Assembly: GCA_945902255.1 (NCBI GenBank)
Contig: CAMDMO010000001.1
Coordinates: 1-36,513 of the forward strand
Source of the DNA: Rickettsia typhi
GTDB lineage: Bacteria > Pseudomonadota > Alphaproteobacteria > Rickettsiales > UBA1997
Direction: 5' to 3'
Length of the DNA: 36,513 nucleotides
Below the pieces are notes generated by a model, which saw only the letters and a list, made by a program, of their open reading frames with translations, was not told where the DNA came from and did not search any database. Of this stretch, positions 2,699 through 34,234 are shown one piece after another. Each line of letters starts with the position of its first letter. The first letter of the stretch is position 1. The translations under genes were made by a program, and so were the position numbers.

Positions 2699-2700
2699 TA

Positions 2701-3633: not shown

Positions 3634-3661
3634 TTTTTCTCCTTTTTTAATTATTAAAGAA

Positions 3662-3709
3662 GAAAAGGGGTCAGACCCCTTTTCTAAAAAAGGGGTCTGA
3701 CCCCTTTTT
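3662..3709. repeat. REP-like palindromic doublet, copy 1 (GAAAAGGGGTC-A-GACCCCTTTTC, then AAAAAGGGGTC-T-GACCCCTTTTT)
   Basis: Read directly from the sequence. There are two perfect about 23-nt palindromes. The 13-nt cores are reverse complements of each other, so the whole doublet is also a palindrome. It fills the cysN-cysK spacer. The same doublet recurs at 5091-5136. Confidence 0.85.
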
Positions 3710-3710
3710 G

Positions 3711-5072: not shown

Positions 5073-5090
5073 GTTTTTTTCAATTTTATT

Positions 5091-5136
5091 AAAAGGGGTC
5101 AGACCCCTTTTGTTGAAAAGGGGTCTGACCCCTTTT
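5091..5136. repeat. REP-like palindromic doublet, copy 2 (AAAAGGGGTC-A-GACCCCTTTT gttg AAAAGGGGTC-T-GACCCCTTTT)
   Basis: Read directly from the sequence. It has the same two units in the same order as 3662-3709. It fills the 70-nt spacer between the cysD stop (5143) and the cysN start (5072). Confidence 0.85.
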
Positions 5137-5142
5137 GCGGTT

Positions 5143-6039
5143 TTAGAAATATCCTTCCAATTTTTTCTTTTCCATCGAGCCAGACTGATCTTTATCAATT
5201 AGTCTTCCTTGCCTTTCTGAAAATTTACTTTTTTTCATTTCCGCAATAATTTCATCAATATTACTTGCCTCAGATTCAATGGCGCCACTGAGTGGATAAC
5301 ATCCTAAAGTTCTAAATCTAACTTTTTTAATTTCTGGTTTTTGTCCATTTAAAGGCAGTCGGTTATCATCGACCATAATTAGAGTTCCATCGCGCTCAAC
5401 CACTGGTCTTGGTGCAGAAAAATAAAGCGGCACAACCTCAATTTCTCTTTCTTTAATATATTCCCAAACATCAAGCTCGGTCCAGTTCGATAAAGGAAAA
5501 ACGCGCATCGATTCTTTATCGTTAATTTTGCAATTAAATAAATTAAACATTTCTGGCTTTTGCATTTTTGGATCCCAGTTATGAAACTGATTTCTAAAAG
5601 AAAAAATTCTCTCTTTAGCGCGAGATTTTTCTTCGTCCCTGCGCGCGCCACCCAAAGCCATATCAAAACCATGCTCGTCAAGAGCTTGTCTTAAACCTTC
5701 GGTTTTCATAATATCGGTGTAAACCTTGCGCTGTAAACCAAATGGCGTAATATCTTCTTTTGCGCCACGAGGATTAACATGAACAATCAGATCAAGTCCA
5801 AATTTTTCTGCCTGATATTTTCTAAATTTAATCATCTCTTGAAATTTCCAAGTTGTATCAACATGCAAAACCTTTACTGGCGGTTTTGCTGGATAAAAAC
5901 TTTTAAGCAAAAGATGTAATAAAACTGAAGAATCTTTACCAATTGAATAAAGCAAAACCGGATTTTTAAATTCCGCCACCGCTTCGCGAATTATGTAAAT
6001 AGACTCTTCTTCAAGCATTTGTAAATATTTGCTAACCAT
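5143..6039 (-). CDS. cysD: sulfate adenylyltransferase subunit 2
   Basis: 298 aa. The N-terminus [16 protein letters not shown]...[17 protein letters not shown] (PP-loop SxGKDS) matches CysD. The ATG at 6037-6039 overlaps the cysI stop by 8 nt. Confidence 0.92.
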
Positions 6040-7669
6040 AAATCTCCCTTAAAATAAAATCGCCAAAAGTCTCGTTGGCAGCGCGTTTTTTAGAATAATC
6101 GCCTAAAAATTTATCCAACTCATTTAGAATATCGCCCTCTTCTAAATCTTCTTTGTAAAGCCTGTTTAAGCGATTTCCTAAGCGATCTCCAGCCAAATAA
6201 AGATTGTATTTTCCAAGCGCTTTTCCAACAAGACCAATTTCTGCCAAATAAGGTCTGCCACAACCATTTGGGCAACCCGTCATTCTTATGCTAATTGGAT
6301 CTTGGCTTAAGTTATATTTTTCCAAAATCACTTCGATTTTTGTAATTAAACTTGGTAAATATCTTTGCGCTTCCGCTAAAGCTAACGAGCAAGTGTTAAG
6401 CGCCACGCAAGCAATAGAATCGGCAAGAATTGGTGAAATGCCGTCATTATTAATATTATATTTTTGGAAGATTTTTTCGACCTGCGATTTATTTTTTTCA
6501 ACAATATCAGAAATAATAATATTTTGATTATTGGTGAAACGAAAATTCGCTAAATTATTTTGCGCAACTTCTCTAAAAGCTTTTTTTAATTGTTGTTTTT
6601 GACTATCGTAAACTCGACCATTTTCAACAAATAAACCATAATGATAATTACCAAGATAATCTTGCTTCCAGCCATAATAATCGCCGCGTTTATCGAATTT
6701 AAATTCTTTGGTTTTTTCCAATTTAAATCCGAGTCTTTTTTCAAATTCTTCCACAAACCATGCAACTCCATATTTTGCGATAGTATATTTGAAGCGAGAC
6801 TGTTTTCGCTCTTCGCGATTTCCAAAATCTCTTTGAATAGTTAAAATTTGGTAAGTCGCATCTAAAATTTTATCTTTTGCGATAAATCCAATTACATCGC
6901 CAAGTCTTGGATAAGTGTCCGCATTGCCATGAGTGGCGCCCATTCCGCCGCCAACCGAAACATTAAATCCTTGCAAAACACCATTTTGAATTATCGCAAT
7001 TAAACCAATATCGTGAGCGTAAACATCCACATCATTATCCGGCGGAATTGCAATTACGATTTTAAATTTTCTTGGCAAATAAGTTTTACCATAAAGCGGC
7101 TCCACCTCTTCAACGCCGGCAATTTGCTCTTGATCCAACCAAACCTCGTGATAAGCATTGGTTTTTGGCAATAAATATTCGCTGATTTTTTTACTAAATT
7201 CATAAACTTCATCATAAGCAGAATTTTGCGCAATCGCCACTGAAGCCATAACATTGCGATTTACATCGCCGCAAGCCGCAATTGAATCAAGTCCGTGATT
7301 CATAAACCAAGCAATTGTTGGTTTTAATTTTGACTTAATCACGCCATGTAATTGCACGGTTTGTCTGGTAGTAATTTTTATCGTTCCCGTTGAATTGTGT
7401 TCAGCAATTTCATCAATTGCCAACCATTCTTTTGCAGAAATTTTTCCGCCAGCAATTCTTAAGCGAAGCATAAAAGAGTAAAGTTTTTCTAACTTTTTTT
7501 CTGCCCTCTCCTCTCTGCGATCACGATCATCTTGCTGATAAATTCCGTGAAATTTTATCACCGTTTGATCATCTTCCGAAATTGCTCCCGTAATAGGATC
7601 AGCAAGGCTTTGTGCTAGAGTTCCGCGAAGATAATTACTATTTATTTTAATTTGTTCTACTTTGCTCAT
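6032..7669 (-). CDS. cysI: sulfite reductase (NADPH) hemoprotein beta-component
   Basis: [20 protein letters not shown], the Cys cluster [15 protein letters not shown] and [19 protein letters not shown] follow E. coli CysI along the whole length, compared from memory. I prefer the ATG at 7667-7669 (MSKVEQIK), 16 nt after the cysJ stop. The track start at 7720 would overlap cysJ by 35 nt. Confidence 0.9.
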
Positions 7670-7685
7670 TTTCTTGTTAATTAAA

Positions 7686-9131
7686 TTAATAAACATCTCG
7701 CAAATATCTATCTTGCTCAATCAAGTTTGATAAATATTCTTGCGCCTGTTCTCTATTTTTATTTCCCTCATTTTCTATTACCTCAAGCAGTGAATTTTCA
7801 ACATCGCGCGCCATGTTTTCTTTATCGCCGCAAACATAAAAATAAGCGCCATTTTCTAACCACTGATATAATTCTTTGGCATTTTCTTTGATGCGATCTT
7901 GCACATAAATTTTTTCTTTTTGATCTCTTGAGAAAGCCACCGACATCTTGGAAAGCAGCCCAGATTCTAAATGCGCTTGCCATTCAATCTGATATAAAAA
8001 ATCACTTTGAAAATTTCTTTCACCAAAAAATAACCAATTTTTTCCACTCGCATTGCGATAATTTCTTTCTGCTAAAAAGGCGCGAAATGGCGCAACTCCT
8101 GTTCCAGGACCAACCATTATAATATCTTGATCGTCTTTAGGTAATTTAAATTGGCGATTTTTGCTAATGTAAAATTTAATTTTAGAGCCAACTTGCAAAT
8201 GCGCCAAATGGCCAGAAAATAAGCCTTCAACCTCTTTTCCATCTTTATCAATATAGCGCAAAACCGAAACCGTTAAATGAACTTCGCTACCATGCTCATT
8301 TAATGAAGAAGCAATAGAATAAAGGCGTGGGGTAATTTTTCCCTCAACTTTCAACTCTTCATTTTCAAATAAAATTCCAACTGAATCACCAGCTTCATAA
8401 TGCAAATCATCCGCGCCAGATGCAGCAATTTCAATATGCCTAGTTTCTTTTGAAGAACCCACATCATTAAGATTAATGTTAGCTAAAATTTCACCAACAA
8501 ATTGATTTTGTCCAGATTTGGCCGGTTTAATATTTTGAACCGAAGCAATTGCGCCGCCTTCTGCAAAAGCTGCTGAAACTTGGGCATAAACTTGATTAAT
8601 TGAATTTTCAAAATCTAAATCTAAATCAATTCTTGGCGCTAATTTTTTTGCATTTAATTTTTCTAACCTTAAATCAATATCTTTTCCTGATTGGCAAAAT
8701 AGCGGGTAGTTAGTGTCTCCAAGCGCAATTACAAAATAATTTAAATTTTTTAAATCCAATTCATTTTGATTAATATATTCGTAAAATTTTTTTCCAGATT
8801 GTGGAATTTCACCTTCGCCATGAGTGCTTGCAATTATCAGTAAATTTTTTTCTTTCACTAAATCGGTAAAGCGATATTGCTCAACTGATTTTAACTTAGA
8901 ATTAGAGCCTTCTGCCTTTAATTTTTTAGCTATTTCTGAAGCTAAAAATTTTGAATTTCCAGTTTCCGTGATATATAAGATTGTTAAATCTTTAACTATT
9001 TTATTATTAGAAATCGCAGATATTTCTTCCGCTACAAGACCAGCTAAATATCCGCTAACCCAAGCAATTTCAGGCTTGGTAAGGCTTGTAATAAATTGAT
9101 CTAATATTTGTTTTTTTTCTTTATTTAGCAT
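7686..9131 (-). CDS. cysJ: sulfite reductase flavoprotein alpha-component, short form (flavodoxin plus FNR-like module)
   Basis: 481 aa. It has the N-terminal AWVSGYLAG motif, flavodoxin-like LTILYITETGNSK, the FAD motif RLYSIASS, NADPH motifs MVGPGTGVAPFRAF and YFYVCGD, and the C-terminal RYLRDVY. Confidence 0.85.
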   Translation of the reverse strand: MLNKEKKQILDQFITSLTKPEIAWVSGYLAGLVAEEISAISNNKIVKDLTILYITETGNSKFLASEIAKKLKAEGSNSKLKSVEQYRFTDLVKEKNLLIIASTHGEGEIPQSGKKFYEYINQNELDLKNLNYFVIALGDTNYPLFCQSGKDIDLRLEKLNAKKLAPRIDLDLDFENSINQVYAQVSAAFAEGGAIASVQNIKPAKSGQNQFVGEILANINLNDVGSSKETRHIEIAASGADDLHYEAGDSVGILFENEELKVEGKITPRLYSIASSLNEHGSEVHLTVSVLRYIDKDGKEVEGLFSGHLAHLQVGSKIKFYISKNRQFKLPKDDQDIIMVGPGTGVAPFRAFLAERNYRNASGKNWLFFGERNFQSDFLYQIEWQAHLESGLLSKMSVAFSRDQKEKIYVQDRIKENAKELYQWLENGAYFYVCGDKENMARDVENSLLEVIENEGNKNREQAQEYLSNLIEQDRYLRDVY

Positions 9132-9222
9132 ATTTCATTTATTTAACTTACAATTTATACGATATTAAAACTTATGCCGCGACGAGATGGACTGGCTTAC
9201 GCAACCGCGCCCTCACCTTTAT

Positions 9223-9915
9223 TTACGCCTTATGTAACCCACATTCTTTTTTCAAATCACTTTCCCACCACCACCTGCCCGCTCTCACATCTTCATCCGA
9301 TGCAACAGCTCTAGTGCAAGGTTCGCAACCAATTGACTTATAGCCTTTTTTATAAAGCTCATTAAAGGGCACGCGATTTTTTTCAATATATTCCCAAACC
9401 TCTTTTTCGCTTAACTCAAGCAAAGGATAAAATTTAATAAGCGCAAAACCTTCGTCTTTTTCAAAAAAATCTTTTTGACCACGAAGTGAAGAATGCTCTT
9501 TTCTAACCCCGCTAATCCAAAGATTTTTTCTTTTTAAAGCGCGCTTCAAAGGCTCTACCTTCCTTATTTGGCAACATTTTAAACGCAATTCTAGATTTTT
9601 ATAAAAAGGATTGATCCCTTCTTGTGAAATAAATTCTTTTAACTCTTTTTCAGCGGGATAATAAGCAGTAATTTTTAGCGGATATTTATCTAAACTATTT
9701 TGCCATACTTCATAAGTTTCTTTCGGCAAGCGCCCTGTATCAAGAGTAAAAACCGTAATTGGCAATTTATTTTGAGCGATAAAATCAAAAATCACCTGAT
9801 CTTCAATGCTAAAACTGGTGGAAAAAACAATATCTTCAAAAACAGACGAAACAAATTTTAGCCTCTCTTGCCAATTTAAATTTTTTGTTTGCTTCAATAG
9901 TTGACTAATTTCCAT
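9223..9915 (-). CDS. cysH: adenylylsulfate (APS)/PAPS reductase, Fe-S (APS-reductase) type
   Basis: C-terminal KKECGLH, plus the CC pair (LKCCQIRKVEPL) and CxxC (IGCEPCT) that mark the iron-sulfur APS-reductase class. I place the start at ATG 9913-9915 (MEISQLL), which is preceded by GGAGGTGAGC. The track start at 9948 lacks a comparable RBS. Confidence 0.88.
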   Translation of the reverse strand: MEISQLLKQTKNLNWQERLKFVSSVFEDIVFSTSFSIEDQVIFDFIAQNKLPITVFTLDTGRLPKETYEVWQNSLDKYPLKITAYYPAEKELKEFISQEGINPFYKNLELRLKCCQIRKVEPLKRALKRKNLWISGVRKEHSSLRGQKDFFEKDEGFALIKFYPLLELSEKEVWEYIEKNRVPFNELYKKGYKSIGCEPCTRAVASDEDVRAGRWWWESDLKKECGLHKA

Positions 9916-11323
9916 GCTCACCTCCAATTTTTTGAAAATAAACACCATCTAAATTTTCTTCGCGCCATTTATGACCTAAATTTACTACATCACCAATAAT
10001 AGCAAGCGATGGGGAGGTAAATTTTTTCTCACCAAATTCTTTAGAAAAATTTTGAATTGAGCTAATATAAGTTTTTTGATAAGGTGTTGTCGCTTGCTCA
10101 ATTATCGCAATTGGTGTATCAGATTTTTTACCAAATTTAACTAGATTTTGCGTGATTTCTAACAAGTTATGAGATGACATATAAAACACTAAGCTATCAT
10201 CACTTTTCGCCAAATCTCTCCAATAATCTTCGCTCTCAAAATCTTGTTTATACATCGCTAAAAATCTTACCGATTTATTTGAATTTCTTGAAGTTAGAGG
10301 AATTCCAGCATAAGCTGCTGCACCAGATGCCGCAGTAATTCCCGGTACTACTTGATATGGAATATTTAAATCAATAATTGCGTCAATTTCTTCACCCAAA
10401 TGAGCAAAAATTCCAGCATCTCCACCTTTTAGGCGCGCCACCACATTGCCTTTTAGCGCATATTCTCTAATCAATAAATTAATTTCTTCTTGTTGATATA
10501 AATGCTTATCGCGGGTTTTTCCTACATTAATTTTTATCGCATCTTTTCTTGCATAATTTAAAATTTCCGGCGAAACCAAGCGGTCATAAAGCACAATATC
10601 AGCTTTTGACAATAACTTAATTGCTTTAAGAGTAATTAATTCTGGATCACCCGGTCCGGCACCAATAAAATAAACCGCCGCCTCTTTTTTATTTTGAGAA
10701 TTTTCTAATTTATCTTCTAATAATTTTTGTGCTTTTTGCAAATTTCCAATCAACACTTCTTCAGCGATTACGCCATCAATTACTTCTTGCCAAAACAATC
10801 TTCTCGCCTGCAAATTGTTTAATTTTTCTTTTACTAATTTTTTATTTTGCGCCAAAAATTCACTTAATAATGGTAAATTTTCTGGCAATAATTTTTGCAA
10901 TCTTTGTTTTAAAACTCGCGCCAAAACAGGCGAAACCCCTGAAGTTCCAATAGATAAAATAACTTCACCGCGCTTAATATTTGCACCAAAAATAAAATTA
11001 GAAATATCTGGATCATCCACTGCATTAATTAGCTTATTTTGCAATTTAGCATCTTGTGAAATTTCTTGATTCACCTTTTTATCATCAGTTGCCGCAACAA
11101 TAATATCAACTTGTGATAAATATTTTTTATCGTAAGAATCTTTGATTAATTTAATACGATTTTCTTTTGCTAAATTCTCAATTTGAGGATTAATTTTTTC
11201 ACCGATCACCAAAATATTATCGCTAAACTCTAAAATGGTATCTAACTTCGCTAAAGCAATATTTCCAGCTCCAACAACTAAAAACCTAATGTTACTAACA
11301 TTTAAAAATAATGGAAAATACAT
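9905..11323 (-). CDS. cysG: siroheme synthase (precorrin-2 dehydrogenase/ferrochelatase plus uroporphyrinogen-III C-methyltransferase)
   Basis: 472 aa with an N-terminal Rossmann motif FLVVGAGNIA and a C-terminal SUMT domain (VYFIGAGPGDPELITLKA, GGDAGIFAHLGEE). It overlaps the cysH start by 11 nt. Confidence 0.9.
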   Translation of the reverse strand: MYFPLFLNVSNIRFLVVGAGNIALAKLDTILEFSDNILVIGEKINPQIENLAKENRIKLIKDSYDKKYLSQVDIIVAATDDKKVNQEISQDAKLQNKLINAVDDPDISNFIFGANIKRGEVILSIGTSGVSPVLARVLKQRLQKLLPENLPLLSEFLAQNKKLVKEKLNNLQARRLFWQEVIDGVIAEEVLIGNLQKAQKLLEDKLENSQNKKEAAVYFIGAGPGDPELITLKAIKLLSKADIVLYDRLVSPEILNYARKDAIKINVGKTRDKHLYQQEEINLLIREYALKGNVVARLKGGDAGIFAHLGEEIDAIIDLNIPYQVVPGITAASGAAAYAGIPLTSRNSNKSVRFLAMYKQDFESEDYWRDLAKSDDSLVFYMSSHNLLEITQNLVKFGKKSDTPIAIIEQATTPYQKTYISSIQNFSKEFGEKKFTSPSLAIIGDVVNLGHKWREENLDGVYFQKIGGEHGN

Positions 11324-15545: not shown

Positions 15546-15878
15546 TTATTCAATGGCGCTTGAGATGGCTGCTGCATCACCTTGATGCACATCAACTTTG
15601 ATTTGATTAAGATGAGGATCAATTCCAGCCCATCCAAATAATTTACCTAGAAGTTGCGATGTTATATTTAAAATATTCCCAGTAACCTCTTGGATTCTTG
15701 ACATCACTAGCTTAAGTGCGTTCGTTGCTTCTGGAGATAATTTTAAAATCAGAGCTACTTCATCAACCGTAATGATATTTAGAGCAAACATTACCACAAA
15801 AATTGAAAATGTAGTAGAAGCAAAAATTATCGCAGTTCTAAGCGTAAGAAAGGAAAGAATATCTGGCATATATTTCAT
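15546..15878 (-). CDS. hypothetical small membrane protein
   Basis: 110-aa ORF with one clear N-terminal hydrophobic helix (AIIFASTTFSIFVVMFALNII). I recognise no family. The coding call rests on ORF length and the fit between neighbouring genes. Confidence 0.4.
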   Translation of the reverse strand: MKYMPDILSFLTLRTAIIFASTTFSIFVVMFALNIITVDEVALILKLSPEATNALKLVMSRIQEVTGNILNITSQLLGKLFGWAGIDPHLNQIKVDVHQGDAAAISSAIE

Positions 15879-17746: not shown

Positions 17747-17821
17747 TGGTGCTGTCAGCGGGAATCGAACCCGCGATCTCTTCATTACCAATGAAGTGCT
17801 CTACCGCTGAGCCATGACAGC
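17747..17821 (-). tRNA. tRNA-Thr (anticodon GGU), CCA encoded
   Basis: Folded by hand on the minus strand: GCTGTCA tg GCTC agcggta GAGC a CTTCA ttGGTaa TGAAG agatc GCGGG ttcgatt CCCGC TGACAGC a CCA. This gives a 7/4/5/5-bp cloverleaf with a TTCGATT T-loop. Confidence 0.9.
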
Positions 17822-17904: not shown

Positions 17905-20900
17905 TTATTTTGAATCACCAACATTGTTACCACCCTCACCGCCAGATTTGTCAGTAGCGCCAGAAGGACCATCTCCACTAGAAGAACCGGAGGATGATTC
18001 TCCATCGCCTGAGGCACCTTCAGTAGATTTACCTTTATTTGCAGCGGATTCAACTTCTTTACCCGCTTTTCTTTTGCCACCAAGCGCTACTTTCCTAGTT
18101 AGTCCAACAGCGCGTTTTTGAGCTCCTATCAAACCTTTTGCAAATTTATTAAATAATTCAGCGCCAGAAACATTGCTTCCTGGTAATTGAGCCCCGCCGG
18201 TTAAGTGAGAGGCAATTCCCGGAATTTCGTTAAGGAATTTCATCAATAGATACATTACTAGAGCTCCCTTTAAAATAGTGAGAACCCTTTCCTTTACATG
18301 ATCTGAAAAAATATTAAGCAATATTGGAATGCTAAGACCAACCACTTCAAGACCCGGAAATCTTCCAAAGTCATTAACATTAATTAAACAAGCGACACTA
18401 TCATTTAATGGATTAACAAGGGTTTGACCCACCTTATCACAGGAAGAATTCTCAATCACAGCGCCATTTGAATCTTGGCAATATGAACTACAAGAAATTG
18501 CTTTCATTGGTCCAGGGCCGGCAAAGGTTGCGCTGCCTATTAATGTTCCATCAATTACCATGATTAAAATTGCAATATATGCGAAAAGTATCATTGGCTG
18601 TAAGCAGAAGCTAATTAGATTAGTAAGCCAGCTTTTAAAAATATCCGCAGTTTTTTCAAATAAAACCCCAACTATCACAATTGGCGAAACAAATACCATT
18701 ATAATAATTGATATTGCTGAGGCTAAAAATATATGAAGAGCCATTATTGTAAGGGCGATAAAGAAGAAGCCCATAAACATTACCGAAATGGCAAAATAAA
18801 TCCCAATTGGTCCAGTAAAAAATCCTGCAAGAATTAAAGATGCAATATTTGCCGCAGAAACCTCTGGCCCAAATGAAAGATAACGAGCGATTTTACAGTC
18901 AAGCGTATCCCACAAGGCCAAATATTCTTTTCCCGCTGGATATAACCTTCCGGAAGAAGCTCTGGTGCCATCTTCAAGAGTTAGGTAACCAAATTGACAT
19001 CCGTCTTTTTTATTTTCTTGCGTACTAGTATTAATTTTAAAAACTAGGCGAGACATTTCGGTTGAAGTATTATAAACACCTTCAAAAAACTTAGATTGCC
19101 AAGCGTCGCCAACTGCAAAATAAAGCACCAAAGCAATTTTTAAAATATATAATAAGATATCTTTCTTTTCTCTAATATCGCTTTTTCCAAGCAAAATATT
19201 CATGCCATAAAATGTTACCGACAAGGTCAAAACCAGCTTAACAAAAATTCTTAAATTTGATTGAATTGTTTCAAAAAATGATTTGTCGTAAACTTTATTT
19301 CCTTTTTTATAAGTAAATGTTCCATCGCTAGCATATTGACCTCCGGGACAGCTGCCGTCAGCAGAAGGATATGCGGAACTTGATAAACAAACACTGTGAC
19401 CCGCTCTGTTATAAAAAAGATTTTCCAAAGTTTCTTTCACGCATTGAGCAATTGGAGCGCTGAAATGTCTTTGACTGCCAAGAATTACACCGCCGCCGCC
19501 ATAAGCTGTTTGGTTTTGAGAATCTCCAACAAAATTAATGCAGGCATCTGAAAAATATGGAGAACCAATATTGCTTTTATATCTATAAGGAATGCTGCCA
19601 GTAATGGTGCAATGAGTTAAATATTGGCAATAGTTCTTACACTTTCCAGCTTTAGCATTATAGGTGCAGTCAGCATTTCTAATTTCACTCTTTGCGGCAC
19701 AATCACCAGCTGCTACATCGCTTGTTTTAATTAAATTCCATGATCCCGAACTACTATTCCAAATACCGTCTTGATAATAATTACAATATTCAGTTCCACC
19801 GCCAACTGAAAAATTATAAGGACATAAACTATAACTCTGAGCACAGACCAATCTTCCATTGTCAAGCTGCTTAGCTTCAAAAGTTACAATTTTACCACTA
19901 TGATTAAGCGTACATCTTGAGCCAGCTTTGCAAAAAACTTGGCTATCATAATATTCTATACACACATAGTTTTGACTTCTTTCTCTACAACAATTATATG
20001 CGTTTCTAAAATCACCAAGGCGCTTTTCTGAAATTGGCCCAGTAAATGTTGGATCGTCTTGCCCCGGCATTATATCATATTGCTTACAATTAAAATTACC
20101 CGACTGCAGACCTTTTAAATAATATCTTTGCTTTGGATATGAAGCGTAAGATTGAGTTGCACTAGTGGCTCTAAGCGGATCGCGACAAGTTGAAGCGGCG
20201 GCGCTTCCAGATAAATCATCACTAGATAAATCAACGCCAGATACTGATGAACCTCCAATAGAAGCAAACGCATCTGCGGTGGAAGTTCCTGCGTTAGCTA
20301 CATCATTCGCAGCAGAAACTGCTCCCGCAGATAGATCGTCATAAAAATCACCAACATTATCTTCGACTTCAACCCCATTATAATACCATTCACGATAAGT
20401 TTTATTGGTCAAAGCAAGCTGCGAACTGTAATTTGCATCATTGAGATGTCCTCTATCTGCTATAATATAATTTTTTATCGCCAATGCTATTGTTTGCTTA
20501 TAATCAGCGGCGTCTCTGTTAAATTTAGCAACATCTGGCTTTGTCCAGTTTGCACCACAAACTTTTGTATTATTAAAAGTTGGCTGAGCAAATTCAGAAT
20601 AAATTATACGAAGCTCTCCCAAGGCCACGTAAAAAGAAGAAAGAGCAAGAAGATATGCGCTTTTACAAGCTGGCGTACCACCGATTGCAGATTTTGTACC
20701 TTTTATTAAATCCCTAGCATCAAGAAGAGGAGATGGGGTAAGTCTTGGAACAGAACTTCCATTGCCACAAGTATAGTTCATGTTTGCAATCGCAATTTTA
20801 ACCGCTGCATAGCTAGTTAAAATTACCGTTAAACACACCGGATTAGATAATACAAATTCTACATCTTTACCGCCCGTTCTTGGATCAAAATCTAAACCTT

Positions 20901-21081
20901 CAACATCTCCAGTCGTCACATCGCAAGAACGCTCTCTGCCAATACCAGCTTCTGGCGCAGATCCGTAACTTGTTGCGGCAGCATAAGATTCTTGTGAAAA
21001 AGTTATAAAAATAACGGACAGCAAAAAAATCTTCAAAAAATATGATATTTCTTTAAGATTTATCTGCCGCAAAATATTCAC
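17905..21081 (-). CDS. virB6: VirB6/TrbL-family type IV secretion inner-membrane protein with a large Cys-rich N-terminal domain and a Gly/Ser/Asp-rich tail
   Basis: 1058 aa with a signal-like N-terminus (FLLSVIFITFSQESYA). By my hand count there are about 24 Cys in the first 600 residues or so. A block of 6-7 hydrophobic helices lies at about residues 610-960, typical of VirB6/TrbL. The tail reads GASGDGESSSGSSSGDGPSG. The start reads GTG at 21079-21081, directly abutting the virB4 stop. Confidence 0.7.
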   Translation of the reverse strand: MNILRQINLKEISYFLKIFLLSVIFITFSQESYAAATSYGSAPEAGIGRERSCDVTTGDVEGLDFDPRTGGKDVEFVLSNPVCLTVILTSYAAVKIAIANMNYTCGNGSSVPRLTPSPLLDARDLIKGTKSAIGGTPACKSAYLLALSSFYVALGELRIIYSEFAQPTFNNTKVCGANWTKPDVAKFNRDAADYKQTIALAIKNYIIADRGHLNDANYSSQLALTNKTYREWYYNGVEVEDNVGDFYDDLSAGAVSAANDVANAGTSTADAFASIGGSSVSGVDLSSDDLSGSAAASTCRDPLRATSATQSYASYPKQRYYLKGLQSGNFNCKQYDIMPGQDDPTFTGPISEKRLGDFRNAYNCCRERSQNYVCIEYYDSQVFCKAGSRCTLNHSGKIVTFEAKQLDNGRLVCAQSYSLCPYNFSVGGGTEYCNYYQDGIWNSSSGSWNLIKTSDVAAGDCAAKSEIRNADCTYNAKAGKCKNYCQYLTHCTITGSIPYRYKSNIGSPYFSDACINFVGDSQNQTAYGGGGVILGSQRHFSAPIAQCVKETLENLFYNRAGHSVCLSSSAYPSADGSCPGGQYASDGTFTYKKGNKVYDKSFFETIQSNLRIFVKLVLTLSVTFYGMNILLGKSDIREKKDILLYILKIALVLYFAVGDAWQSKFFEGVYNTSTEMSRLVFKINTSTQENKKDGCQFGYLTLEDGTRASSGRLYPAGKEYLALWDTLDCKIARYLSFGPEVSAANIASLILAGFFTGPIGIYFAISVMFMGFFFIALTIMALHIFLASAISIIIMVFVSPIVIVGVLFEKTADIFKSWLTNLISFCLQPMILFAYIAILIMVIDGTLIGSATFAGPGPMKAISCSSYCQDSNGAVIENSSCDKVGQTLVNPLNDSVACLINVNDFGRFPGLEVVGLSIPILLNIFSDHVKERVLTILKGALVMYLLMKFLNEIPGIASHLTGGAQLPGSNVSGAELFNKFAKGLIGAQKRAVGLTRKVALGGKRKAGKEVESAANKGKSTEGASGDGESSSGSSSGDGPSGATDKSGGEGGNNVGDSK

Positions 21082-23469
21082 TTACTTACGAGACCTCTCA
21101 TAATAAACCGGCAACCAATCATTTGGATCGTCGCCAACCTCTTCAATAATTTGATCTAGCAAAATTATTGTATCAACCCTTGCGGATAAAACACGAATTA
21201 GATCATCCATTCCACCTAAATCTACCCTAGCGATTACGCCATCACTATCTTGTTTGACCAAGAAAAATCTAGTTGAAGGATCTGTCGTTTTTACCAGATT
21301 AAATTCGCGCTCTGAAAGCATAAATACATCACGATAGGCCATGGTGGCTTTCAAATTAGGTAAGAAAATTTGAGTTGCAGTTTGTTGCACCAAGGTATCA
21401 GAAATACTGCTTTTTGATGCATCCTCAACTGACTGAGTTGCAAAAACTACGAATGTGTTTAATTTTCTTAATACTTTTAGCCAATCTTTAATTTTTGGCG
21501 CAAAAACTGGATTACCAATTAATGCCCAAGCTTCATCCAAAACAATCATAGTTGGCGAGCCATCAAGCGAACTTTGAATACGATGAAACAAATAAAGTAA
21601 AGCCGGACTAATACTGGTTTTATCTTTAAGAAGCTCACCCATTTCAATGCCGAAAGTGCGTGACGAAGTAAAATCAATTAGATCTTCTGCATTATCAAAA
21701 AGTTTAGCGTGAGATCCGTCCGAGTGCCACATTGAAAGCCTTCCAGATAGCGTTCCAGGGCCACCTATTCCCATGAAAGGAGCAATATTTCTTATTCTTC
21801 TTTGTTCTTTTGGTAATTTATAATTTCCACTCACTGCCTCATTAATTCTCTCAACTTCGTGAGCTGGCAAAGGCGCGTCACTAGTAGAAACTAACACCTT
21901 CAAAAACTCAATTAAAAATGAGCGATTTTCACTATTATCTTCAAGTTGAAATGGATTAAAACCAGATATTTTTGCCGCATCTGGAATCATATAACGACCA
22001 CGAATGGCGCGAATAAATATTTCTGCACCACGATCTTTATCAAAGAAAAATAAACGACATTTAAATTTTTGCGCCTGAGCACAAAGGAAGGTCAAAAGCA
22101 CTGTTTTACCTGCGCCGGTTGGACCAATAATCATGGTATGTCCCACATCTCGCACATGAAAACTAAAGAAATAGGGCGTTCCTGAAACTGTATTTAGAAC
22201 AGTTAGTGCATTTCCCCAGTGATTCTTTTTTCTTTTTCCAGATGGATAATTGTGAAATGATGCAAAAGATGCAATATTTAGCGTATTTACAGTACATCGA
22301 CGCGCTAGCAATTCTGTGTTTCCAGGAAGTTGCCCCCAAAAAGCAGGCTCCATATTCATTCTTTCACGAACGCCGGTGATACCACTATTTGAAAGCTCCA
22401 CCACCGCTAAAGATAAAGCACTTTCCAAAGATTTTGGCGTATCTTCAACGCAAAGCACAGTAAGATGATGATTGCCAAAGCCAAATTCACCACTCATCGC
22501 CGAATCAAGTGCCTGGTCAATTTCTTGAATTTGCGATACCGCCACATCTTCAGATTGCACAAGTCGTCTTTGTTGAAGCTGCATCGAGCTAATCGCCACC
22601 ATGCGATTAATAAAAGAAAATGATTGGCTAATAATTAATTCAAATGGCATTTCCATAAAACCATCTAACACGCCAGCATGAGTTGAGGGGCGATATTCTT
22701 TGATCGAAACCAATCCAGCATATTTAATGCCGGTAGGAGTTCTAACTTCAATTGATTTATTGCCGAAATAAAGTCGACTAATTGGAAGATGGTGAGATAT
22801 TTCGCCAAGCGGCACTGTCATTGGCTGCGAATATCCGCAATTAACTAAGCGAGATAAAAATTCTAATGCTTCTGAGGTAACGCCATCTTCGGTTTCAGTA
22901 ATTCCAATAGTGTGTGCGCCATAGTTACCATAGCCATTTAGAATTCTTTCGGTCATTTCTTCAAGCTCATCGAAAGCCTCTCTCATGTAATTTTCCCAAG
23001 TGGACTTATCTGCTCGATGTTGCAATTTTTTCGCCATATGCTCAATTACAGCGGCTCCAGATTTATCTTGCCCGCGAATAATTGTAAAATAATGCTCGTT
23101 AACGAAACATTTATCGTCCGAGTGCTTTGCAGCCCATTCTCTATTTACGCTTTCAGAAAATAAATCCGGCATTTCACCATCAGGAAAACCCTTTTCTTTG
23201 CGTCTAATTGTGTGAAAATAAAGCGAAAAGCTTCCGGAAGACATACCTTTTAAAAGGTTATTTCTTGCCGATTTTTTAAGGTCAATATCAATATCATCAG
23301 CGGTTTCAAAGGAAAAACCTTTGATTTTTATAATTCTAACCAGCTCTTCATTATAGGTTAAAATAGTGTCGGAATTCCAATGGCATTTATATGGAATAAA
23401 ATGCGCCGCAGAAACCTCATATTTAGTAACTTTTTCTTTCGCTGGTTTAAGCGTTGAAAGCCTGATCAT
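21082..23469 (-). CDS. virB4: type IV secretion ATPase VirB4
   Basis: 795 aa with Walker A IIGPTGAGKTVLL, Walker B-like MIVLDEAW, and FATQS. Size and N-terminal pattern are typical of VirB4/CagE. Confidence 0.9.
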   Translation of the reverse strand: MIRLSTLKPAKEKVTKYEVSAAHFIPYKCHWNSDTILTYNEELVRIIKIKGFSFETADDIDIDLKKSARNNLLKGMSSGSFSLYFHTIRRKEKGFPDGEMPDLFSESVNREWAAKHSDDKCFVNEHYFTIIRGQDKSGAAVIEHMAKKLQHRADKSTWENYMREAFDELEEMTERILNGYGNYGAHTIGITETEDGVTSEALEFLSRLVNCGYSQPMTVPLGEISHHLPISRLYFGNKSIEVRTPTGIKYAGLVSIKEYRPSTHAGVLDGFMEMPFELIISQSFSFINRMVAISSMQLQQRRLVQSEDVAVSQIQEIDQALDSAMSGEFGFGNHHLTVLCVEDTPKSLESALSLAVVELSNSGITGVRERMNMEPAFWGQLPGNTELLARRCTVNTLNIASFASFHNYPSGKRKKNHWGNALTVLNTVSGTPYFFSFHVRDVGHTMIIGPTGAGKTVLLTFLCAQAQKFKCRLFFFDKDRGAEIFIRAIRGRYMIPDAAKISGFNPFQLEDNSENRSFLIEFLKVLVSTSDAPLPAHEVERINEAVSGNYKLPKEQRRIRNIAPFMGIGGPGTLSGRLSMWHSDGSHAKLFDNAEDLIDFTSSRTFGIEMGELLKDKTSISPALLYLFHRIQSSLDGSPTMIVLDEAWALIGNPVFAPKIKDWLKVLRKLNTFVVFATQSVEDASKSSISDTLVQQTATQIFLPNLKATMAYRDVFMLSEREFNLVKTTDPSTRFFLVKQDSDGVIARVDLGGMDDLIRVLSARVDTIILLDQIIEEVGDDPNDWLPVYYERSRK

Positions 23470-27034: not shown

Positions 27035-27055
27035 AACCATGCACACCAACTTACT
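27035..27055 (+). repeat. direct repeat, left copy (AACCATGCACACCaACtTaCT), containing the R start codon
   Basis: 13/13 identical and then 18/21 identical to 28882-28902. A TTAAAAAATC 10-mer also recurs (26990-26999 and 28870-28879). Confidence 0.7.
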
Positions 27056-27884
27056 CATAGCAATAAAAAATATAGTAAACAACCCCATATCAAATCCAAC
27101 ATCTCATAGCGCTTCATTAAATCGCATAAATAATACCGGAGAAACTTTAGAGCTTTACATAAAAGATATTTTTTGTAACTCACTTCGCATTACAGAGCAA
27201 AATAAAAAAACAGAAATTTTCTCAAATTATTTTTCTTATATTGGAAATCAAAATAATCCACCAGATCTCATAATAAAAAATGGAGATGCGATTGAAATAA
27301 AAAAAATTGAAAATTCTCATTCTGGAATCGCTTTAAATAGCTCTTACCCAAAAGATAAATTATATTCTGACAGCTCAATGATCACAAAAAGCTGTAAAGA
27401 ATGTGAAGATTGGGAAGAAAAAGATCTTCTTTACGCGATAGGATTCATTAAAAATAAAGTATTAAAATCTCTTTGGTTTGTTTACGGAGATTGCTACGCT
27501 GCAGACAAAGAAACTTACGAAAGAATTAAGAAAAAAATCTCTTCTGGCTTAAATGATATATCAAATATAGAGCTCTCAGAAACAAATGAGCTTGGAAGAG
27601 TGAATAAAGTCGATCCTCTTGGAATAACTTATCTGCGCATAAGAGGAATGTGGCACATAGAAAATCCAAAAAAAGTTTTTGACTATGTTTGCAAAGAATC
27701 AGAATCAAATTTTACCGTAAATGCATTAATTTTGCGAAATAAGTATGATTCATTTCCTGAAAACGACAAAAGAGAAATAGAACAAATTAAAAAATCAGGA
27801 TTTACCATTCAAGATGTCAAGATTAAGTCCCCAAACAATCCAGCAAAAATGCTTGATGCAAAACTAATTTCATTCAATAACTAA
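27039..27884 (+). CDS. type II restriction endonuclease, NgoPII-like (probable GGCC)
   Basis: 281 aa, immediately upstream (2-nt gap) of a HaeIII-like m5C methyltransferase. Blocks NGDAIEIKKIE, ELGRVNKVDPLGITYLRIRGMWHIENP and IKIKSPNNPA match my recollection of R.NgoPII. No database search was possible. Confidence 0.65.
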   Translation: MHTNLLIAIKNIVNNPISNPTSHSASLNRINNTGETLELYIKDIFCNSLRITEQNKKTEIFSNYFSYIGNQNNPPDLIIKNGDAIEIKKIENSHSGIALNSSYPKDKLYSDSSMITKSCKECEDWEEKDLLYAIGFIKNKVLKSLWFVYGDCYAADKETYERIKKKISSGLNDISNIELSETNELGRVNKVDPLGITYLRIRGMWHIENPKKVFDYVCKESESNFTVNALILRNKYDSFPENDKREIEQIKKSGFTIQDVKIKSPNNPAKMLDAKLISFNN

Positions 27885-27886
27885 AT

Positions 27887-28873
27887 ATGAGAGTAGCATC
27901 ATTATTTTCCGGCGCTGGAGGTCTAGATAAAGGATTTGAAAAAGCCGGTTTTCATGTAATTTGGGCAAACGAATATGATTCAACTATCTGGGATACTTTT
28001 AAGCTAAATTTTCCAAATACAACTCTTGACAAAAGAAGTATTGTTAAAGTTCAAAGCAATGAGGTTCCCGATATTGACGGCATAATAGGTGGTCCTCCAT
28101 GTCAAAGCTGGAGCGAAGCTGGAGCTGGTCGCGGAATTAACGATAAGCGCGGTCAACTATTTTATGAATATATACGCTTACTAAAAGACAAGAAGCCTAA
28201 ATTCTTTTTTGCCGAGAATGTTTCTGGGATACTTCATCCAAAACACGCTATAGCTTTTTCTAGCATCATTCAAGAATTCAAAGACGCGGGATATGAAGTC
28301 TCTTACAAACTGCTAAACACCAATAATTATGATGTGCCTCAAGATCGCTTGCGCCTCATAATAATTGGCTATCACATAAATTTAGGAAAGAAGTTTGAGT
28401 TTCCAGAGCCACAAGAATATAAACCCGTTCTAAAAGATATAATTTATGATTTACAAGAAGCAACCCCCGCAAAAGATGGAAATAAAACAAATGGTGATGA
28501 ATTAAATATTGCAAATCATGAATATATGAATGGCGGGTTCTCAACAATATATATGTCTCGCAATAGAGTTAGGGCTTGGAATGAGCCATCTTTTACTATT
28601 CAAGCCGGTGGCAGACATGCTCCCATTCACCCTCAAGCTCCAAAAATGCAATTTGTTGAGCAAAATAAAAGGATCTTCGCTCCAGAAAAAGAACATTTAT
28701 ATCGCCGATTATCAGTTAGAGAATGCGCAAGAATTCAAACATTTCCCGACAACTTTATTTTTAAGTATAAAAATATTGCAGATGGCTATAAAATGATCGG
28801 AAATGCTGTGCCTGTAAATTTTGCTTATCATTTAGCGAAAAAAATATTTGAAGATTTATCCGCAAAGAATTAA
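27887..28873 (+). CDS. DNA (cytosine-5)-methyltransferase, M.HaeIII/M.NgoPII-like (probable GGCC)
   Basis: 328 aa with all m5C motifs: LFSGAGGLDKGF (I), GGPPCQSWS (IV), AENVSG (VI), QDRLRL (VIII), RRLSVRECARIQTFPD (IX) and GNAVPV (X). The variable region NHEY...STIYMSRNRVRAWNEPSFTIQAGGR...HPQAP closely follows M.HaeIII as I recall it. Confidence 0.9.
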   Translation: MRVASLFSGAGGLDKGFEKAGFHVIWANEYDSTIWDTFKLNFPNTTLDKRSIVKVQSNEVPDIDGIIGGPPCQSWSEAGAGRGINDKRGQLFYEYIRLLKDKKPKFFFAENVSGILHPKHAIAFSSIIQEFKDAGYEVSYKLLNTNNYDVPQDRLRLIIIGYHINLGKKFEFPEPQEYKPVLKDIIYDLQEATPAKDGNKTNGDELNIANHEYMNGGFSTIYMSRNRVRAWNEPSFTIQAGGRHAPIHPQAPKMQFVEQNKRIFAPEKEHLYRRLSVRECARIQTFPDNFIFKYKNIADGYKMIGNAVPVNFAYHLAKKIFEDLSAKN

Positions 28874-31331: not shown

Positions 31332-31360
31332 TTGACTAAAAACTTTCTTTTTGGTAAAAA
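31332..31360 (+). promoter_or_regulatory. candidate sigma70 promoter of the str operon (TTGACT - 17 nt - TAAAAA)
   Basis: The -35 is at 31332-31337 and the -10 is at 31355-31360, about 135 nt upstream of the rpsL ATG. Pattern match only. Confidence 0.35.
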
Positions 31361-31494
31361 TGACGCCCCCCATTGCCGAAATTAGATATCTATGCTAAAT
31401 AGTTAGATGTTTGCGACGGGTCTTTAGCTGTTTATTTGAAAAAAATTCTTTTTTTTAAAAAACTAAATAACTTAAATATTGATCAGCATTTTTC

Positions 31495-32385: not shown

Positions 32386-32434
32386 TATCTAAACAAATAA
32401 AGATTTTACCGTTAACAATATCGATACTCTTTAC

Positions 32435-34138
32435 ATGAAAAAATATAAAAATATTGAGTTCGATATTGTTATACCGGTACATAAAAAAGATCTCGCAGTC
32501 CTCGAATATTGCATAGAAGCCGCAAAAAATAAAATCATCGGTGTCAGAAAAATCTTCATAGTTTCCAAAGAAAGATATAGCGAAAATGCTGAATGGGTTG
32601 ATGAAGCCTCATTTCCATTTTCAATAGAATTAGCGAAAAGCTATGTTGGAACTTCTTGTGGCTGGTATTTTCAACAGATGCTAAAAATGTATGCCCCCTT
32701 AGTAATTCCGGGCATCACCGAAAATGTTTTAATTCTTGACAGCGACACGGTTTTCTTTCGCAAAGTCAGCATGTTTGATAGTGAAGGTCGCCCTCTTTAT
32801 AATATTAGTAAGGACACCAAACTATGTCGCAGATCCTTTGATCAATTGGTTGCAGCCCATATAAGAAAATTACTTCCATCTATCGCCACAGAAAATCTTC
32901 CTGAAGAATTTCAAACTCTTTCCGGCATTAGTCATAACATGATTTTTAACCAAAAAATCTTAAGAGAGTTATTTAAAAAAATCGAAGATCACGACGCTTC
33001 TGGCGATCCTTTTTATAAAATATTTTTTAAAAATTCCGGCATATCTCACGGCGCCTCAGAATATCAAATCTATTTTTGCTTTTTATTAGTTTATCATAGA
33101 AACGAGGTTGGTTTTAGAAGATTAAGATATAAAAATACCGCTGACTTGAATATTAAAAAATATCGTCGTCGCCTTAAATATCACTATTGCTCTTTTCATT
33201 CTTATTTAAGAAGCACGGTTATCAAATCTTGGCGCATGAAGCTAAGAAAAATTATCAATAAATTATTTTTTATTGATAAGTGGAATTGTGGAATTGCAAA
33301 TTGTGGAATTGAAAATTTTCTAACACTTCCTAATCAGAAAATTAATTGGCTTGCAAGCGTTAGCTCTCTTGACTTCCGCGCCGATCCTTTTGGAATCATT
33401 AGTCACGATGCTAAAAAACATATTTTCTTTGAAGATTACAGTTATTTAAAAAGAAAAGGTGAAATTATTCGCGCCGAAATTGACGATAATTTTAACATTC
33501 TAAACAAAACTTCTCTACTTACAAAACCCTATCACCTCTCTTACCCTTATATTTTCGAAAATGATGGCGAGAACTTCATGCTGGTTGAAAGTTATAAAGC
33601 AAAAAAACTTGAACTATATAAAATCACTAAAAATCTTGGATTAGAAAAAGTCAAAGATTTACTCAGCAATCTTGAAATAGTTGATCCTTCAATAATAAAA
33701 TTTAACGAAATTTGGTGGTTATTTTTCAATTTAAATAATGAGGGCGATGGGAAACTTCACCTAGCTTATAGCGATAACTTGCTTGGCGAATGGAAAATGC
33801 ACCCAAAAAATCCAATTAAAGATAATATTTCCTCCGCTCGTTCAGCTGGAAAAATTTTCTTACATAATGGCTCCTTATATAGACCGGCACAAAATTGCCA
33901 ATTTAATTATGGCAATTCAATCGTCATAAATAAAATAACTACCCTTGATTCACAAAATTACGAAGAGCAAGCTGAAATTGAAATCCATCCCAATCAGTTG
34001 GGGCATTATCCAGATGGACTTCACAACATATCGCCTTTAGGAAAAAATTTAACCTTAATCGATGGCAAAAAGAAAATTTTTGTTTTTTACAAGCCACTTA
34101 TAGCATTATTTAGAGTTTTTTACAAAAATTTCTTGTAG
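32435..34138 (+). CDS. two-domain protein: N-terminal GT-A-like putative glycosyltransferase (DxD = DSD) fused to a C-terminal beta-propeller-like domain
   Basis: 567-aa ORF. The N-terminus has DIVIPVHKKDL, GWYFQQMLKMY and LILDSDTVFF, which I recall from DUF6492-type nucleotide-sugar transferases. The C-terminus has WNCGI, DFRADPFG, FFEDYSYLKRKGEI, DPSIIKF and LAYSDNLLGEWKMHPKNPI. I recall this pattern from bacterial proteins annotated as the glucosamine inositolphosphorylceramide transferase-like / GH43-like propeller family. Confidence 0.6.
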   Translation: MKKYKNIEFDIVIPVHKKDLAVLEYCIEAAKNKIIGVRKIFIVSKERYSENAEWVDEASFPFSIELAKSYVGTSCGWYFQQMLKMYAPLVIPGITENVLILDSDTVFFRKVSMFDSEGRPLYNISKDTKLCRRSFDQLVAAHIRKLLPSIATENLPEEFQTLSGISHNMIFNQKILRELFKKIEDHDASGDPFYKIFFKNSGISHGASEYQIYFCFLLVYHRNEVGFRRLRYKNTADLNIKKYRRRLKYHYCSFHSYLRSTVIKSWRMKLRKIINKLFFIDKWNCGIANCGIENFLTLPNQKINWLASVSSLDFRADPFGIISHDAKKHIFFEDYSYLKRKGEIIRAEIDDNFNILNKTSLLTKPYHLSYPYIFENDGENFMLVESYKAKKLELYKITKNLGLEKVKDLLSNLEIVDPSIIKFNEIWWLFFNLNNEGDGKLHLAYSDNLLGEWKMHPKNPIKDNISSARSAGKIFLHNGSLYRPAQNCQFNYGNSIVINKITTLDSQNYEEQAEIEIHPNQLGHYPDGLHNISPLGKNLTLIDGKKKIFVFYKPLIALFRVFYKNFL

Positions 34139-34234
34139 ATTTAAAACTAAATGATACTGTGCGCCGCCCTTGCTTTTAGCAGACAATTATTTCCTGTCTA
34201 GAATCTTCTTTATTTAAAAAATATTTCACTAATT

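Follow-up and report, generated by a model that had tools for sequence, protein, structure and literature searches.

In the 36,513-nucleotide (nt) stretch of DNA analysed here (the window: positions 1 to 36,513 of contig CAMDMO010000001.1, assembly GCA_945902255.1, deposited as Rickettsia typhi), rpsG and fusA are separated by a gene, here called X, whose product joins an N-terminal domain with a predicted Stealth-like glycosyltransferase (GT)-A fold to a C-terminal five-bladed beta-propeller. Gene X looks like a family-wide resident of this junction in Candidatus (Ca.) Gamibacteraceae, and we consider it reasonably probable that X is a transferase of the cytoplasm that depends on a nucleotide sugar and modifies an envelope glycoconjugate, the propeller being an accessory carbohydrate module. 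As its two domains are members of catalogued families, the protein does not represent a novel kind. New here are the assignment, from modelled structures, of DUF6492 to a Stealth-like GT-A fold; the family-wide residence of X inside the str gene string and the repeated loss of its propeller, both read from genome comparison; and a junction that seems to have been re-wired by a putative promoter of fusA's own. Gamibacteraceae would thereby have long carried an unrelated enzyme gene inside the frozen rpsL-rpsG-fusA string, and the junction offers a natural example of a core operon tolerating, then accommodating, an insertion.

Gene X at the rpsG-fusA junction

The order rpsL-rpsG-fusA is a textbook case of a gene string frozen across bacteria. 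The arrangement that defines a str operon, rpsG directly followed by and co-transcribed with fusA, is not found in the window, as a 1.7-kb gene intervenes; the interval 32386-34234 is the entire rpsG-fusA interval (Table 1), and tuf follows fusA on the source contig (seen in locus L001). The open reading frame (ORF) listing agrees with the first-pass annotation, made from the letters alone, that this gene lies on the same strand, with gaps of 49 nt to rpsG and 96 nt to fusA, and all the motifs quoted there (VIPVHKKDL, GWYFQQMLKMY, DSD, WNCGI, FRADPFG and FFEDY...KGEI) are present in its translation. That X is a real gene rather than a chance ORF is borne out by about 80 homologues, by ratios of nonsynonymous to synonymous substitution rates (dN/dS) far below 1 and by confident structural models of both halves (predicted local distance difference test, pLDDT, 94.3 and 96.3). 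No family was assigned to X by an NCBIfam scan, only chance-level matches were returned by a PDB sequence search, and no name for X or its N-only relatives was found in the cluster look-up sources.

The homologues (about 80 full-length ones, at 42-69% identity) come from metagenome-assembled genomes (MAGs) labelled Rickettsiales or Alphaproteobacteria. The string rpsL-rpsG-X-fusA was found in the contigs of homologues with 69%, 54% and 43% identity, with differing upstream flanks. A scan of one genome per species, in which rpsL, rpsG, fusA and both halves of X were located by tblastn, gave 79 loci. Genome scan and tblastn together show rpsG-X-fusA in 40 non-redundant loci: X is full-length in 20, reduced to the N-domain in 16 and made of the N-domain plus frameshifted or deleted propeller remnants in 4. 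In three non-redundant loci rpsG-X lies at a contig end, and in eight X-fusA has no rpsG found upstream (two of these begin at the contig edge).

Ca. Gamibacteraceae are an aquatic family of Rickettsiales, probably protist-associated and sister to Deianiraea (PMC9352585). Three founding MAGs of this family, C-132, UBA2645 and RIFCSPLOWO2_01_FULL_40_26, are among the 40 loci recovered by the synteny comparison that the first-pass annotation had proposed. As these three genomes span the depth of the X tree, the insertion looks like a family-wide trait, and it is a candidate genomic marker for Gamibacteraceae. Neither the insertion nor DUF6492 was the subject of any relevant paper found in the literature search, which agrees with the earlier impression that fusion and location had not been described, although the gene turns out to be common in the lineage.

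In a neighbour-joining tree of the N-domain, the outgroup consists of standalone homologues (Chlamydiae, Babeliaceae, Verrucomicrobia), and the N-only and decayed forms are repeatedly nested inside full-length clades. On this tree, the N-domain is the constant resident of the junction and the propeller a dispensable part, repeatedly lost or decayed. Full-length copies found outside the operon are nested within the operon clade and therefore derive from secondary duplication. Several genomes with an N-only operon copy keep such a full-length copy elsewhere (L063 with L048, L064 with L027). This second full-length paralogue, often found in genomes with a propeller-less str-operon copy, also lies beside a ribosomal protein gene: in L011, L021, L027, L048 and L035 (X at about 4000-5700) the order is GATase, DUF2628, rplT (-), X (+), grpE (-), clpP and clpX. 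No glycan genes, and no functional clue, were found around the out-of-operon paralogues, whether next to rplT and grpE-clpP-clpX or after a major facilitator superfamily transporter gene.

The dN/dS values are 0.03-0.12 for the N-domain, 0.11-0.22 for the C-domain and 0.005-0.09 for fusA, and the distances between pairs, measured on the X N-domain and on fusA, are correlated (Spearman 0.51), which fits a mainly vertical descent of X. The gene has a GC content of 0.326 and a codon usage resembling that of ordinary window genes rather than of translation genes (codon log-likelihood ratio -0.065, against -0.19 to +0.05 for other window genes and about +0.05 for rpsL, rpsG and fusA). The earlier statement that its composition is like that of its neighbours thus holds for the ordinary genes of the window. 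Its companion, that X is not an obviously recent arrival, stands, given the native composition and a position common to the 40 loci. GC content, codon usage and depth of synteny rule out a recent horizontal arrival, and by these comparisons the gene appears ancient.

Some loci depart from the common arrangement. In L036-L040 and L068, X-fusA directly follows nrdB (-), with no rpsL-rpsG in the 2-4 kb of sequence upstream, and the X-fusA spacers are AT-rich, 250-380 nt long and devoid of the GC-box element described below. In RIFCSPLOWO2_01_FULL_40_26 (L005-L007, 7905-9683), tuf does not follow fusA; two small ORFs on the reverse strand and a gene with a Fic domain stand there instead. In a Chlamydiia MAG (L084, 3947-8743), rpsG and fusA are adjacent without insert, and a standalone DUF6492 homologue is convergent to the rpsG-fusA-(107-aa ORF) string and lies roughly 1.5 kb away from fusA; this proximity, seen in 1 of 20 outgroup loci, is probably a coincidence.

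The N-terminal domain, a probable divergent member of DUF6492

The AlphaFold2 model of residues 1-280, built from the family alignment, has a pLDDT of 94.3 and a predicted template modelling (TM) score of 0.90. It consists of alternating strands and helices, in which D102-S-D104 directly follows strand E97-101. The end of beta-strand 4 is the usual place of the DxD motif in GT-A enzymes. With a Rossmann-like alpha/beta/alpha core, this DxD and Foldseek matches to GT6 and Stealth structures at probability 1.00, the model has the features of a GT-A fold. The first-pass annotation had called the N-terminal module GT-A-like with a candidate DxD, and model, invariant D102-S-D104 and Foldseek all concur. 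Its description as glycosyltransferase-like is sound as to the GT-A-type fold, but the closest structures are those of Stealth sugar-1-phosphate transferases, not of classical glycosyltransferases.

A database search with residues 1-285 returned 321 relatives, most of them standalone proteins of 235-340 amino acids (aa) annotated as DUF6492. In an alignment of 55 sequences, D10, E57, G76-W77, Q80-Q81, K84, Y86, D102xD104, H167, E209 and H255 are invariant and R228 is nearly so. The D102-S-D104 motif is invariant in alignments A1 and A2, and both aspartates are also invariant in A5. By analogy with GT-A and Stealth enzymology, from which the metal-binding role of the DxD is taken, this motif is a candidate site for the metal and the nucleotide-sugar diphosphate.

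DUF6492 (PF20102) is a Pfam family without functional annotation. It matches 54 of the 55 members of the alignment, including the window domain, at E <= 0.01 (best E 4.6e-12), as well as 50 of 55 multi-domain relatives. The score of X itself is 20.2 bits for the full-length protein and 22.5 bits for the N-domain alone (gathering threshold 22.9), and the match covers residues 75-126, i.e. the GWYxQQ...DSD core, with 53 of 291 profile positions aligned. Because of this sub-threshold score and short alignment, the str-operon proteins are best described, from sequence, as a divergent DUF6492 subfamily poorly captured by the Pfam model, and the membership of X rests on homology through its relatives.

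Comparison with Stealth hexose-1-phosphate transferases

Searched against PDB with Foldseek, the N-domain model finds Stealth phosphotransferases first (E 2.8e-9 to 1e-6) and GT6 blood-group transferases next (TM ~0.4). The top match is CpsY of Mycobacterium tuberculosis (PDB 8j2n, E 2.8e-9, TM 0.56-0.60), and the catalytic domains of GNPTAB (7s6n, 9bgg, 7s05) are matched at TM ~0.5; the model thus has the fold of a Stealth-type catalytic domain. Against viral models, the matches are glycosyltransferase, methyltransferase and Stealth proteins, mostly from giant viruses.

Stealth proteins are defined by four conserved regions, CR1 (IDVVYTF-like), CR2, CR3 and CR4 (PMC9388126, PMC10668966). CR3 contains a strictly conserved His, the general base, and an Arg that binds phosphate (PMC9388126), and CR4 is a C[LI]ND motif whose Asn binds Mg (PMC9388126, PMC10668966). 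An acidic metal-site motif follows beta-strand 4 in these enzymes (D407/D408 in GNPTAB, N322/D324 in CpsY; PMC9388126, PMC10668966), as D102xD104 does in X, and the conserved H167 and R228 of X appear to come in the same order as the catalytic His and Arg. The start of X, FDIVIPV, resembles CR1 only loosely (PMC10668966). In contrast, the C[LI]ND signature is absent and is replaced in X by C252-S-F-H255, within Y-C252-S-F-H255-S-Y, with a His in the place of the Asn-Asp of Stealth, and the sequence identity of Stealth proteins to the N-domain is only 12-16%. No Pfam Stealth model, CR1 and CR2 included, matches the window protein at E <= 1; Stealth_CR2 gives weak matches in 6 of the 55 relatives (best E 8.8e-4). 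The N-domain family profile did not find Stealth chains by sequence in PDB, where it gave chance-level matches only, and so the link to Stealth rests on structure. Because fold and acidic motif, and apparently the His/Arg order, are shared while CR4 and recognition by the profiles are lacking, we call X Stealth-like in its modelled fold and not a Stealth member.

The C-terminal propeller and predicted localisation

Residues 312-512 of X match GINT1_N (PF24793) with 125 bits (E 3.9e-36), far above the gathering threshold of 27 bits. The AlphaFold2 model of the C-domain (pLDDT 96.3) is made nearly entirely of beta-strands followed by a terminal helix, and Foldseek relates it to glycoside hydrolase (GH) families GH117, GH43 and GH159 and to a beta-1,2-oligomannan phosphorylase (TM 0.5-0.59). 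Profile and fold confirm the first-pass reading of this module as a five-bladed propeller. Across diverse GINT1_N proteins, D317, E333, E385, D417, R469, R483, E511, H530 and D543 are invariant or near-invariant, and this conservation suggests a real binding or catalytic site.

The C-domain has the five-bladed fold of GH43 (TM 0.5-0.59 to GH43 and GH117 structures) and does not belong to that family in Pfam, where GH43 scores 16 bits (E 0.0081; threshold 32.2). As in GH43/GH117/GH130-type hydrolases and phosphorylases, three acidic residues, D317, D417 and E511, seem to be spaced roughly like the Asp/Asp/Glu triad of GH43; however, the identity to these enzymes is 11-16%, and the conserved R469, R483 and H530 of X are not GH43 features. 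The plant glucosamine inositolphosphorylceramide transferase 1 (GINT1) also has such a propeller fused to a nucleotide-sugar transferase domain. The propeller of GINT1 is N-terminal and its partner is named a GT64 transferase in plant papers, whereas that of X is C-terminal and its partner is DUF6492. GT64 is a GT-A-type family. The GINT1 literature deals with plant sphingolipids only, and no described function of the propeller itself was found there. One transferase partner shared by all GINT1_N fusions is ruled out, as the N-terminal halves of two other bacterial GINT1_N fusion proteins, P0086 and P0109, have no similarity to DUF6492.

Signal-peptide analysis, advised in the first-pass annotation, came out negative: neither a signal peptide nor a transmembrane segment was found in X. 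Two cationic amphipathic helices are predicted, at residues 261-278 (hydrophobic moment 0.52, net charge +6) and 553-566, which fits a cytoplasmic enzyme that may sit on the membrane.

Promoter-like and terminator-like elements

All promoter and terminator activity discussed here, including that of the site upstream of rpsL, is inferred from sequence. Comparison of the X-fusA spacers reveals, in 25 non-redundant loci, a conserved promoter-like element with the consensus CTTGTcA-N16-TAnnTT-GCgcCGCCc after an A/T-rich tract. In the window, it consists of a -35 TTGTAG (34133-34138), 16 nt, a -10 TACTGT (34155-34160) and the discriminator GCGCCGCCC (34161-34169); the TAG of the -35 is the stop codon of X, which the element therefore overlaps. 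The motif TTGCSSSGCCC occurs once per locus, just after the X stop in 19 of the 20 loci with a match, and the exact GC box is unique within the window; a dispersed repeat is thus ruled out. In E. coli, rrnB P1 has a TTGTCA -35, a 16-bp spacer and a GCGCC-type discriminator, features that confer sensitivity to growth rate and to guanosine tetraphosphate (ppGpp); we take the fusA element to resemble this promoter. Because this conserved element precedes fusA, fusA-tuf probably has its own promoter, independent of read-through across X.

In the window and in many relatives, X starts shortly after rpsG or overlaps it. The first-pass annotation had seen no convincing terminator on either side of X: indeed, in the consensus scan of the window the + strand shows nothing like a terminator from rpsG through X to fusA, and a structured RNA or terminator in the X-fusA spacer is ruled out, as this spacer folds no better than its shuffles (z = +0.63) and has no Rfam match. 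As to the co-transcription proposed on that basis, X is probably the last gene of the rpsL-rpsG transcription unit, but read-through into fusA would not be required, given the promoter-like element of the latter. In about 14 relatives, a hairpin followed by a T-run, typical of an intrinsic terminator, lies right after rpsG, 13-60 nt before the start of X (L013, L014, L016, L018, L020, L024, L028, L052, L057, L058, L063, L064, L066 and L067); the window has none. The scan tool confirmed those of L014 and L024, the approximately 12 others being read by eye. In these relatives X would therefore be expressed by terminator read-through, hence at a reduced level.

The E. coli operon rpsU-dnaG-rpoD has a comparable layout, with an enzyme gene between a ribosomal and a housekeeping gene, a terminator that lowers its expression and an internal promoter downstream. 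The relatives with a predicted terminator after rpsG and a conserved promoter-like element before fusA recall this layout, but the genes are others, X is not known to be linked to macromolecular synthesis and the window lacks the terminator.

Long palindromic elements, in which short units are repeated in tandem (GTCGTAAGT..., GTGCTCAG..., GTGCTTCG...), interrupt spacers around X, namely the X-fusA spacers of L014, L016, L031, L058 and L045 and the rpsG-X spacers of L058 and L019. They resemble a family of palindromic repeats specific to this lineage.

Glycan context and proposed function

An exhaustive profile search yielded 3,914 sequence clusters of DUF6492 relatives. Among 55 multi-domain members, the fusion partners include GT11 (8), RXYLT1_C (7), GT47 (6), FkbM (4), GT34, sulfotransferase and GT92. 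The 96 neighbours of 20 outgroup homologues most commonly encode RXYLT1_C, GDP-mannose dehydratase, NAD-dependent epimerase, GT11, methyltransferase domain and GT2 proteins; GT10, GT47 and UDP-glucose dehydrogenase are also recurrent. A verrucomicrobial homologue, for example, lies amid UDP-glucose dehydrogenase, FkbM methyltransferase, GT10 and GT92 genes. Genes of this type are also found at the str junction itself: a nucleotide-sugar epimerase/dehydratase of 331-334 aa is encoded after X in L017 (5724-7686) and L038 (1100-2101), a truncated remnant of such a gene remains in L015 (5777-6418), and a GT4 glycosyltransferase gene overlaps the start of X in L034 (1704-2792). The junction of L017 also holds a 337-aa ORF without Pfam match.

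Because neighbours and fusions point to glycan assembly, a transferase acting on envelope glycans is favoured; this hypothesis, raised in the first-pass annotation as a surface-glycan enzyme, is the best supported of its three. Reasoning from the observed reading frame, folds, conservation, synteny, selection and conserved cis-elements to enzymatic activity, acceptor and membrane association, X can be pictured as follows. It would be a cytoplasmic, probably membrane-peripheral transferase, dependent on a divalent cation and a nucleotide sugar, whose N-domain would add a sugar or a sugar-1-phosphate to an envelope glycoconjugate precursor, e.g. an LPS-like (lipopolysaccharide-like) or capsule-like glycan. 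The GINT1_N propeller would be a dispensable accessory, probably binding or trimming the carbohydrate acceptor. The gene would have entered the rpsG-fusA junction in the ancestor of Ca. Gamibacteraceae and then been inherited largely vertically; it would be transcribed behind rpsL-rpsG, at a level lowered by the terminator in some relatives, while fusA-tuf would be driven by an rRNA-P1-type promoter at the end of X. The location would thus reflect history and a growth-coupled low-level expression, not a translation-related substrate.

Several points weigh against this model. No paper giving activity, donor or acceptor for any DUF6492 or bacterial GINT1_N protein was found, and no other glycan-synthesis gene lies near X within the window. 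The neighbours of X in most loci of the lineage are translation genes only, X stays beside fusA in the subclade without rpsL-rpsG upstream and the second paralogue locus adjoins rplT. Moreover, glycan-type neighbours alone are compatible with a protein acceptor, and the data fit transfer of a sugar as well as of a sugar phosphate.

The same observations can be read as signs that X modifies the translation machinery, e.g. by (phospho)glycosylating EF-G, S7, S12 or elongation factor Tu (EF-Tu), its location ensuring co-regulation of enzyme and substrate as for earP/efp. EarP is the arginine rhamnosyltransferase of elongation factor P and is encoded next to its substrate gene. It thus shows that a glycosyltransferase of bacteria can have a translation factor as its target; however, it has a GT-B fold unrelated to DUF6492, and nothing found here points to a protein acceptor for X. 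In favour of such a role, the position between translation genes is conserved in the 40 loci, X is kept with fusA in L036-L040 and L068 despite the lack of rpsL-rpsG upstream, the duplicate copy adjoins rplT, grpE and clpPX, selection on the N-domain is as strong as on fusA, and the eukaryotic Stealth enzyme acts on proteins via their glycans (PMC9388126). Yet the neighbours and fusion partners across the family are glycan-building enzymes rather than translation genes, 19 of the 20 outgroup homologue loci are unlinked to translation genes, and the junction of some genomes has taken up GT4 or sugar-epimerase genes beside X. A carbohydrate-type propeller and amphipathic helices would also suit a membrane glycan substrate better, and gene order in the str region is so inert that synteny is weak evidence of function. 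We therefore regard modification of the translation machinery as improbable. A slightly lower probability still is given to the broader proposal that the target of the N-domain lies in the translation apparatus, be it EF-G or a protein of the small subunit, or else that its activity ties the output of envelope glycans to the stringent and growth-rate control of ribosome synthesis, which would explain both the family-wide position of X between rpsG and fusA and the duplicate beside rplT. If X did act on the translation machinery, the resulting sugar or sugar-phosphate modification would be of a novel kind for bacteria.

About as doubtful as this broader proposal is a host-directed role, in which X would be a glycosylating effector delivered into a protist by a type IV secretion system of the Rickettsiales type, comparable to Legionella Lgt/SetA or the clostridial GT-A toxins. 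The window does encode VirB4 and a VirB6-like protein of 1058 aa, the C-terminus of X is basic, close relatives of the N-domain occur in Chlamydiae, Babeliaceae and Rickettsiales MAGs, and the lineage is thought to be protist-associated (PMC9352585). Against this, the very low dN/dS and slow sequence change of X would be unusual for an effector, the gene occupies a housekeeping locus in every sampled member, the C-terminus differs wholly between full-length and N-only forms, and the Verrucomicrobia homologues lie in ordinary glycan clusters. Least probable of all, and very remote, is that X would be a neutral passenger in a junction where rearrangement is selected against. Decay or loss of the C-domain in several lineages and a codon usage not adapted to high expression would be expected of a passenger, but dN/dS values of 0.03-0.12 for the N-domain over many pairs, with synonymous sites near saturation, indicate long-term purifying selection, about 55 diverse relatives share the same catalytic-type residues without exception and the reading frame is intact in the 40 loci. 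For the N-domain, a pseudogene or neutral passenger is ruled out by the dN/dS.

Structure and context together provide the approximately 3,900 DUF6492 clusters with an assignment, from models, to a Stealth-like GT-A fold and with a link to glycan assembly. Protist-associated bacteria (Rickettsiales, Chlamydiae, Babeliaceae) are the source of the close relatives recovered; if X builds a surface glycan, it may bear on the interaction of these bacteria with their hosts.

Other features of the window

The features of the rpsL-fusA region are listed in Table 1.

Table 1. Window coordinates of the genes, domains and sequence elements around gene X.
Feature	Position	Strand	Basis or remark
Promoter-like site upstream of rpsL: TTGACT, 18 nt, AAAAAT, then GC-rich box GACGCCCCCC	31332..31371	+	Consensus scan; box read by eye
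rpsL (ribosomal protein S12), 123 aa	31495..31866	+	ORF listing; Pfam Ribosom_S12_S23 on identical L001 gene
rpsG (ribosomal protein S7), 155 aa	31918..32385	+	ORF listing; Pfam Ribosomal_S7 on identical L001 gene
rpsG-X spacer, 49 nt	32386..32434	+	No hairpin terminator and no clear Shine-Dalgarno (sequence and consensus scan)
Gene X, 567 aa, two domains: DUF6492/Stealth-like transferase (predicted) and GINT1_N propeller	32435..34138	+	
N-domain, residues 1-280, GT-A-type fold, probable divergent DUF6492 member	32435..33274	+	AlphaFold2, Foldseek, Pfam
D102-S-D104 codons, invariant DxD at the end of beta-strand 4	32738..32746	+	
Residues 261-278, cationic amphipathic helix closing the N-domain (TVIKSWRMKLRKIINKLF)	33215..33268	+	Modelled helix H257-278
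C-domain, residues 281-567, GINT1_N five-bladed beta-propeller with a terminal amphipathic helix (553-566)	33275..34135	+	
fusA promoter-like element: A/T-rich tract, -35, 16-nt spacer, -10, GC-rich discriminator	34115..34169	+	25 non-redundant loci
fusA (EF-G), 692 aa	34235..36313	+	ORF listing; Pfam domains from L001

Elsewhere in the window, a contiguous block of acs, cysE, cysK, cysN, cysD, cysI, cysJ, cysH and cysG (276-11323, - strand) provides a complete assimilatory sulfate reduction and cysteine synthesis, unusual among host-associated Rickettsiales; the window fits a metabolically capable relative of this order. The gene of VirB4 (795 aa) adjoins that of the very large VirB6/TrbL-like protein (1058 aa) on the - strand (17905-23469), a pair that follows the pattern of the vir-homologue type IV secretion system of Rickettsiales. 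A type II restriction-modification pair, made up of an NgoPII-type restriction endonuclease and a C5 cytosine methyltransferase (27039-28873, + strand), is encoded a few genes before rpsL; the endonuclease gene has the lowest GC content among the window genes (0.30). The - strand also carries a 110-aa ORF without Pfam match (15546-15878) and a single tRNA gene (17750-17821), which is the sole Rfam match in the window.

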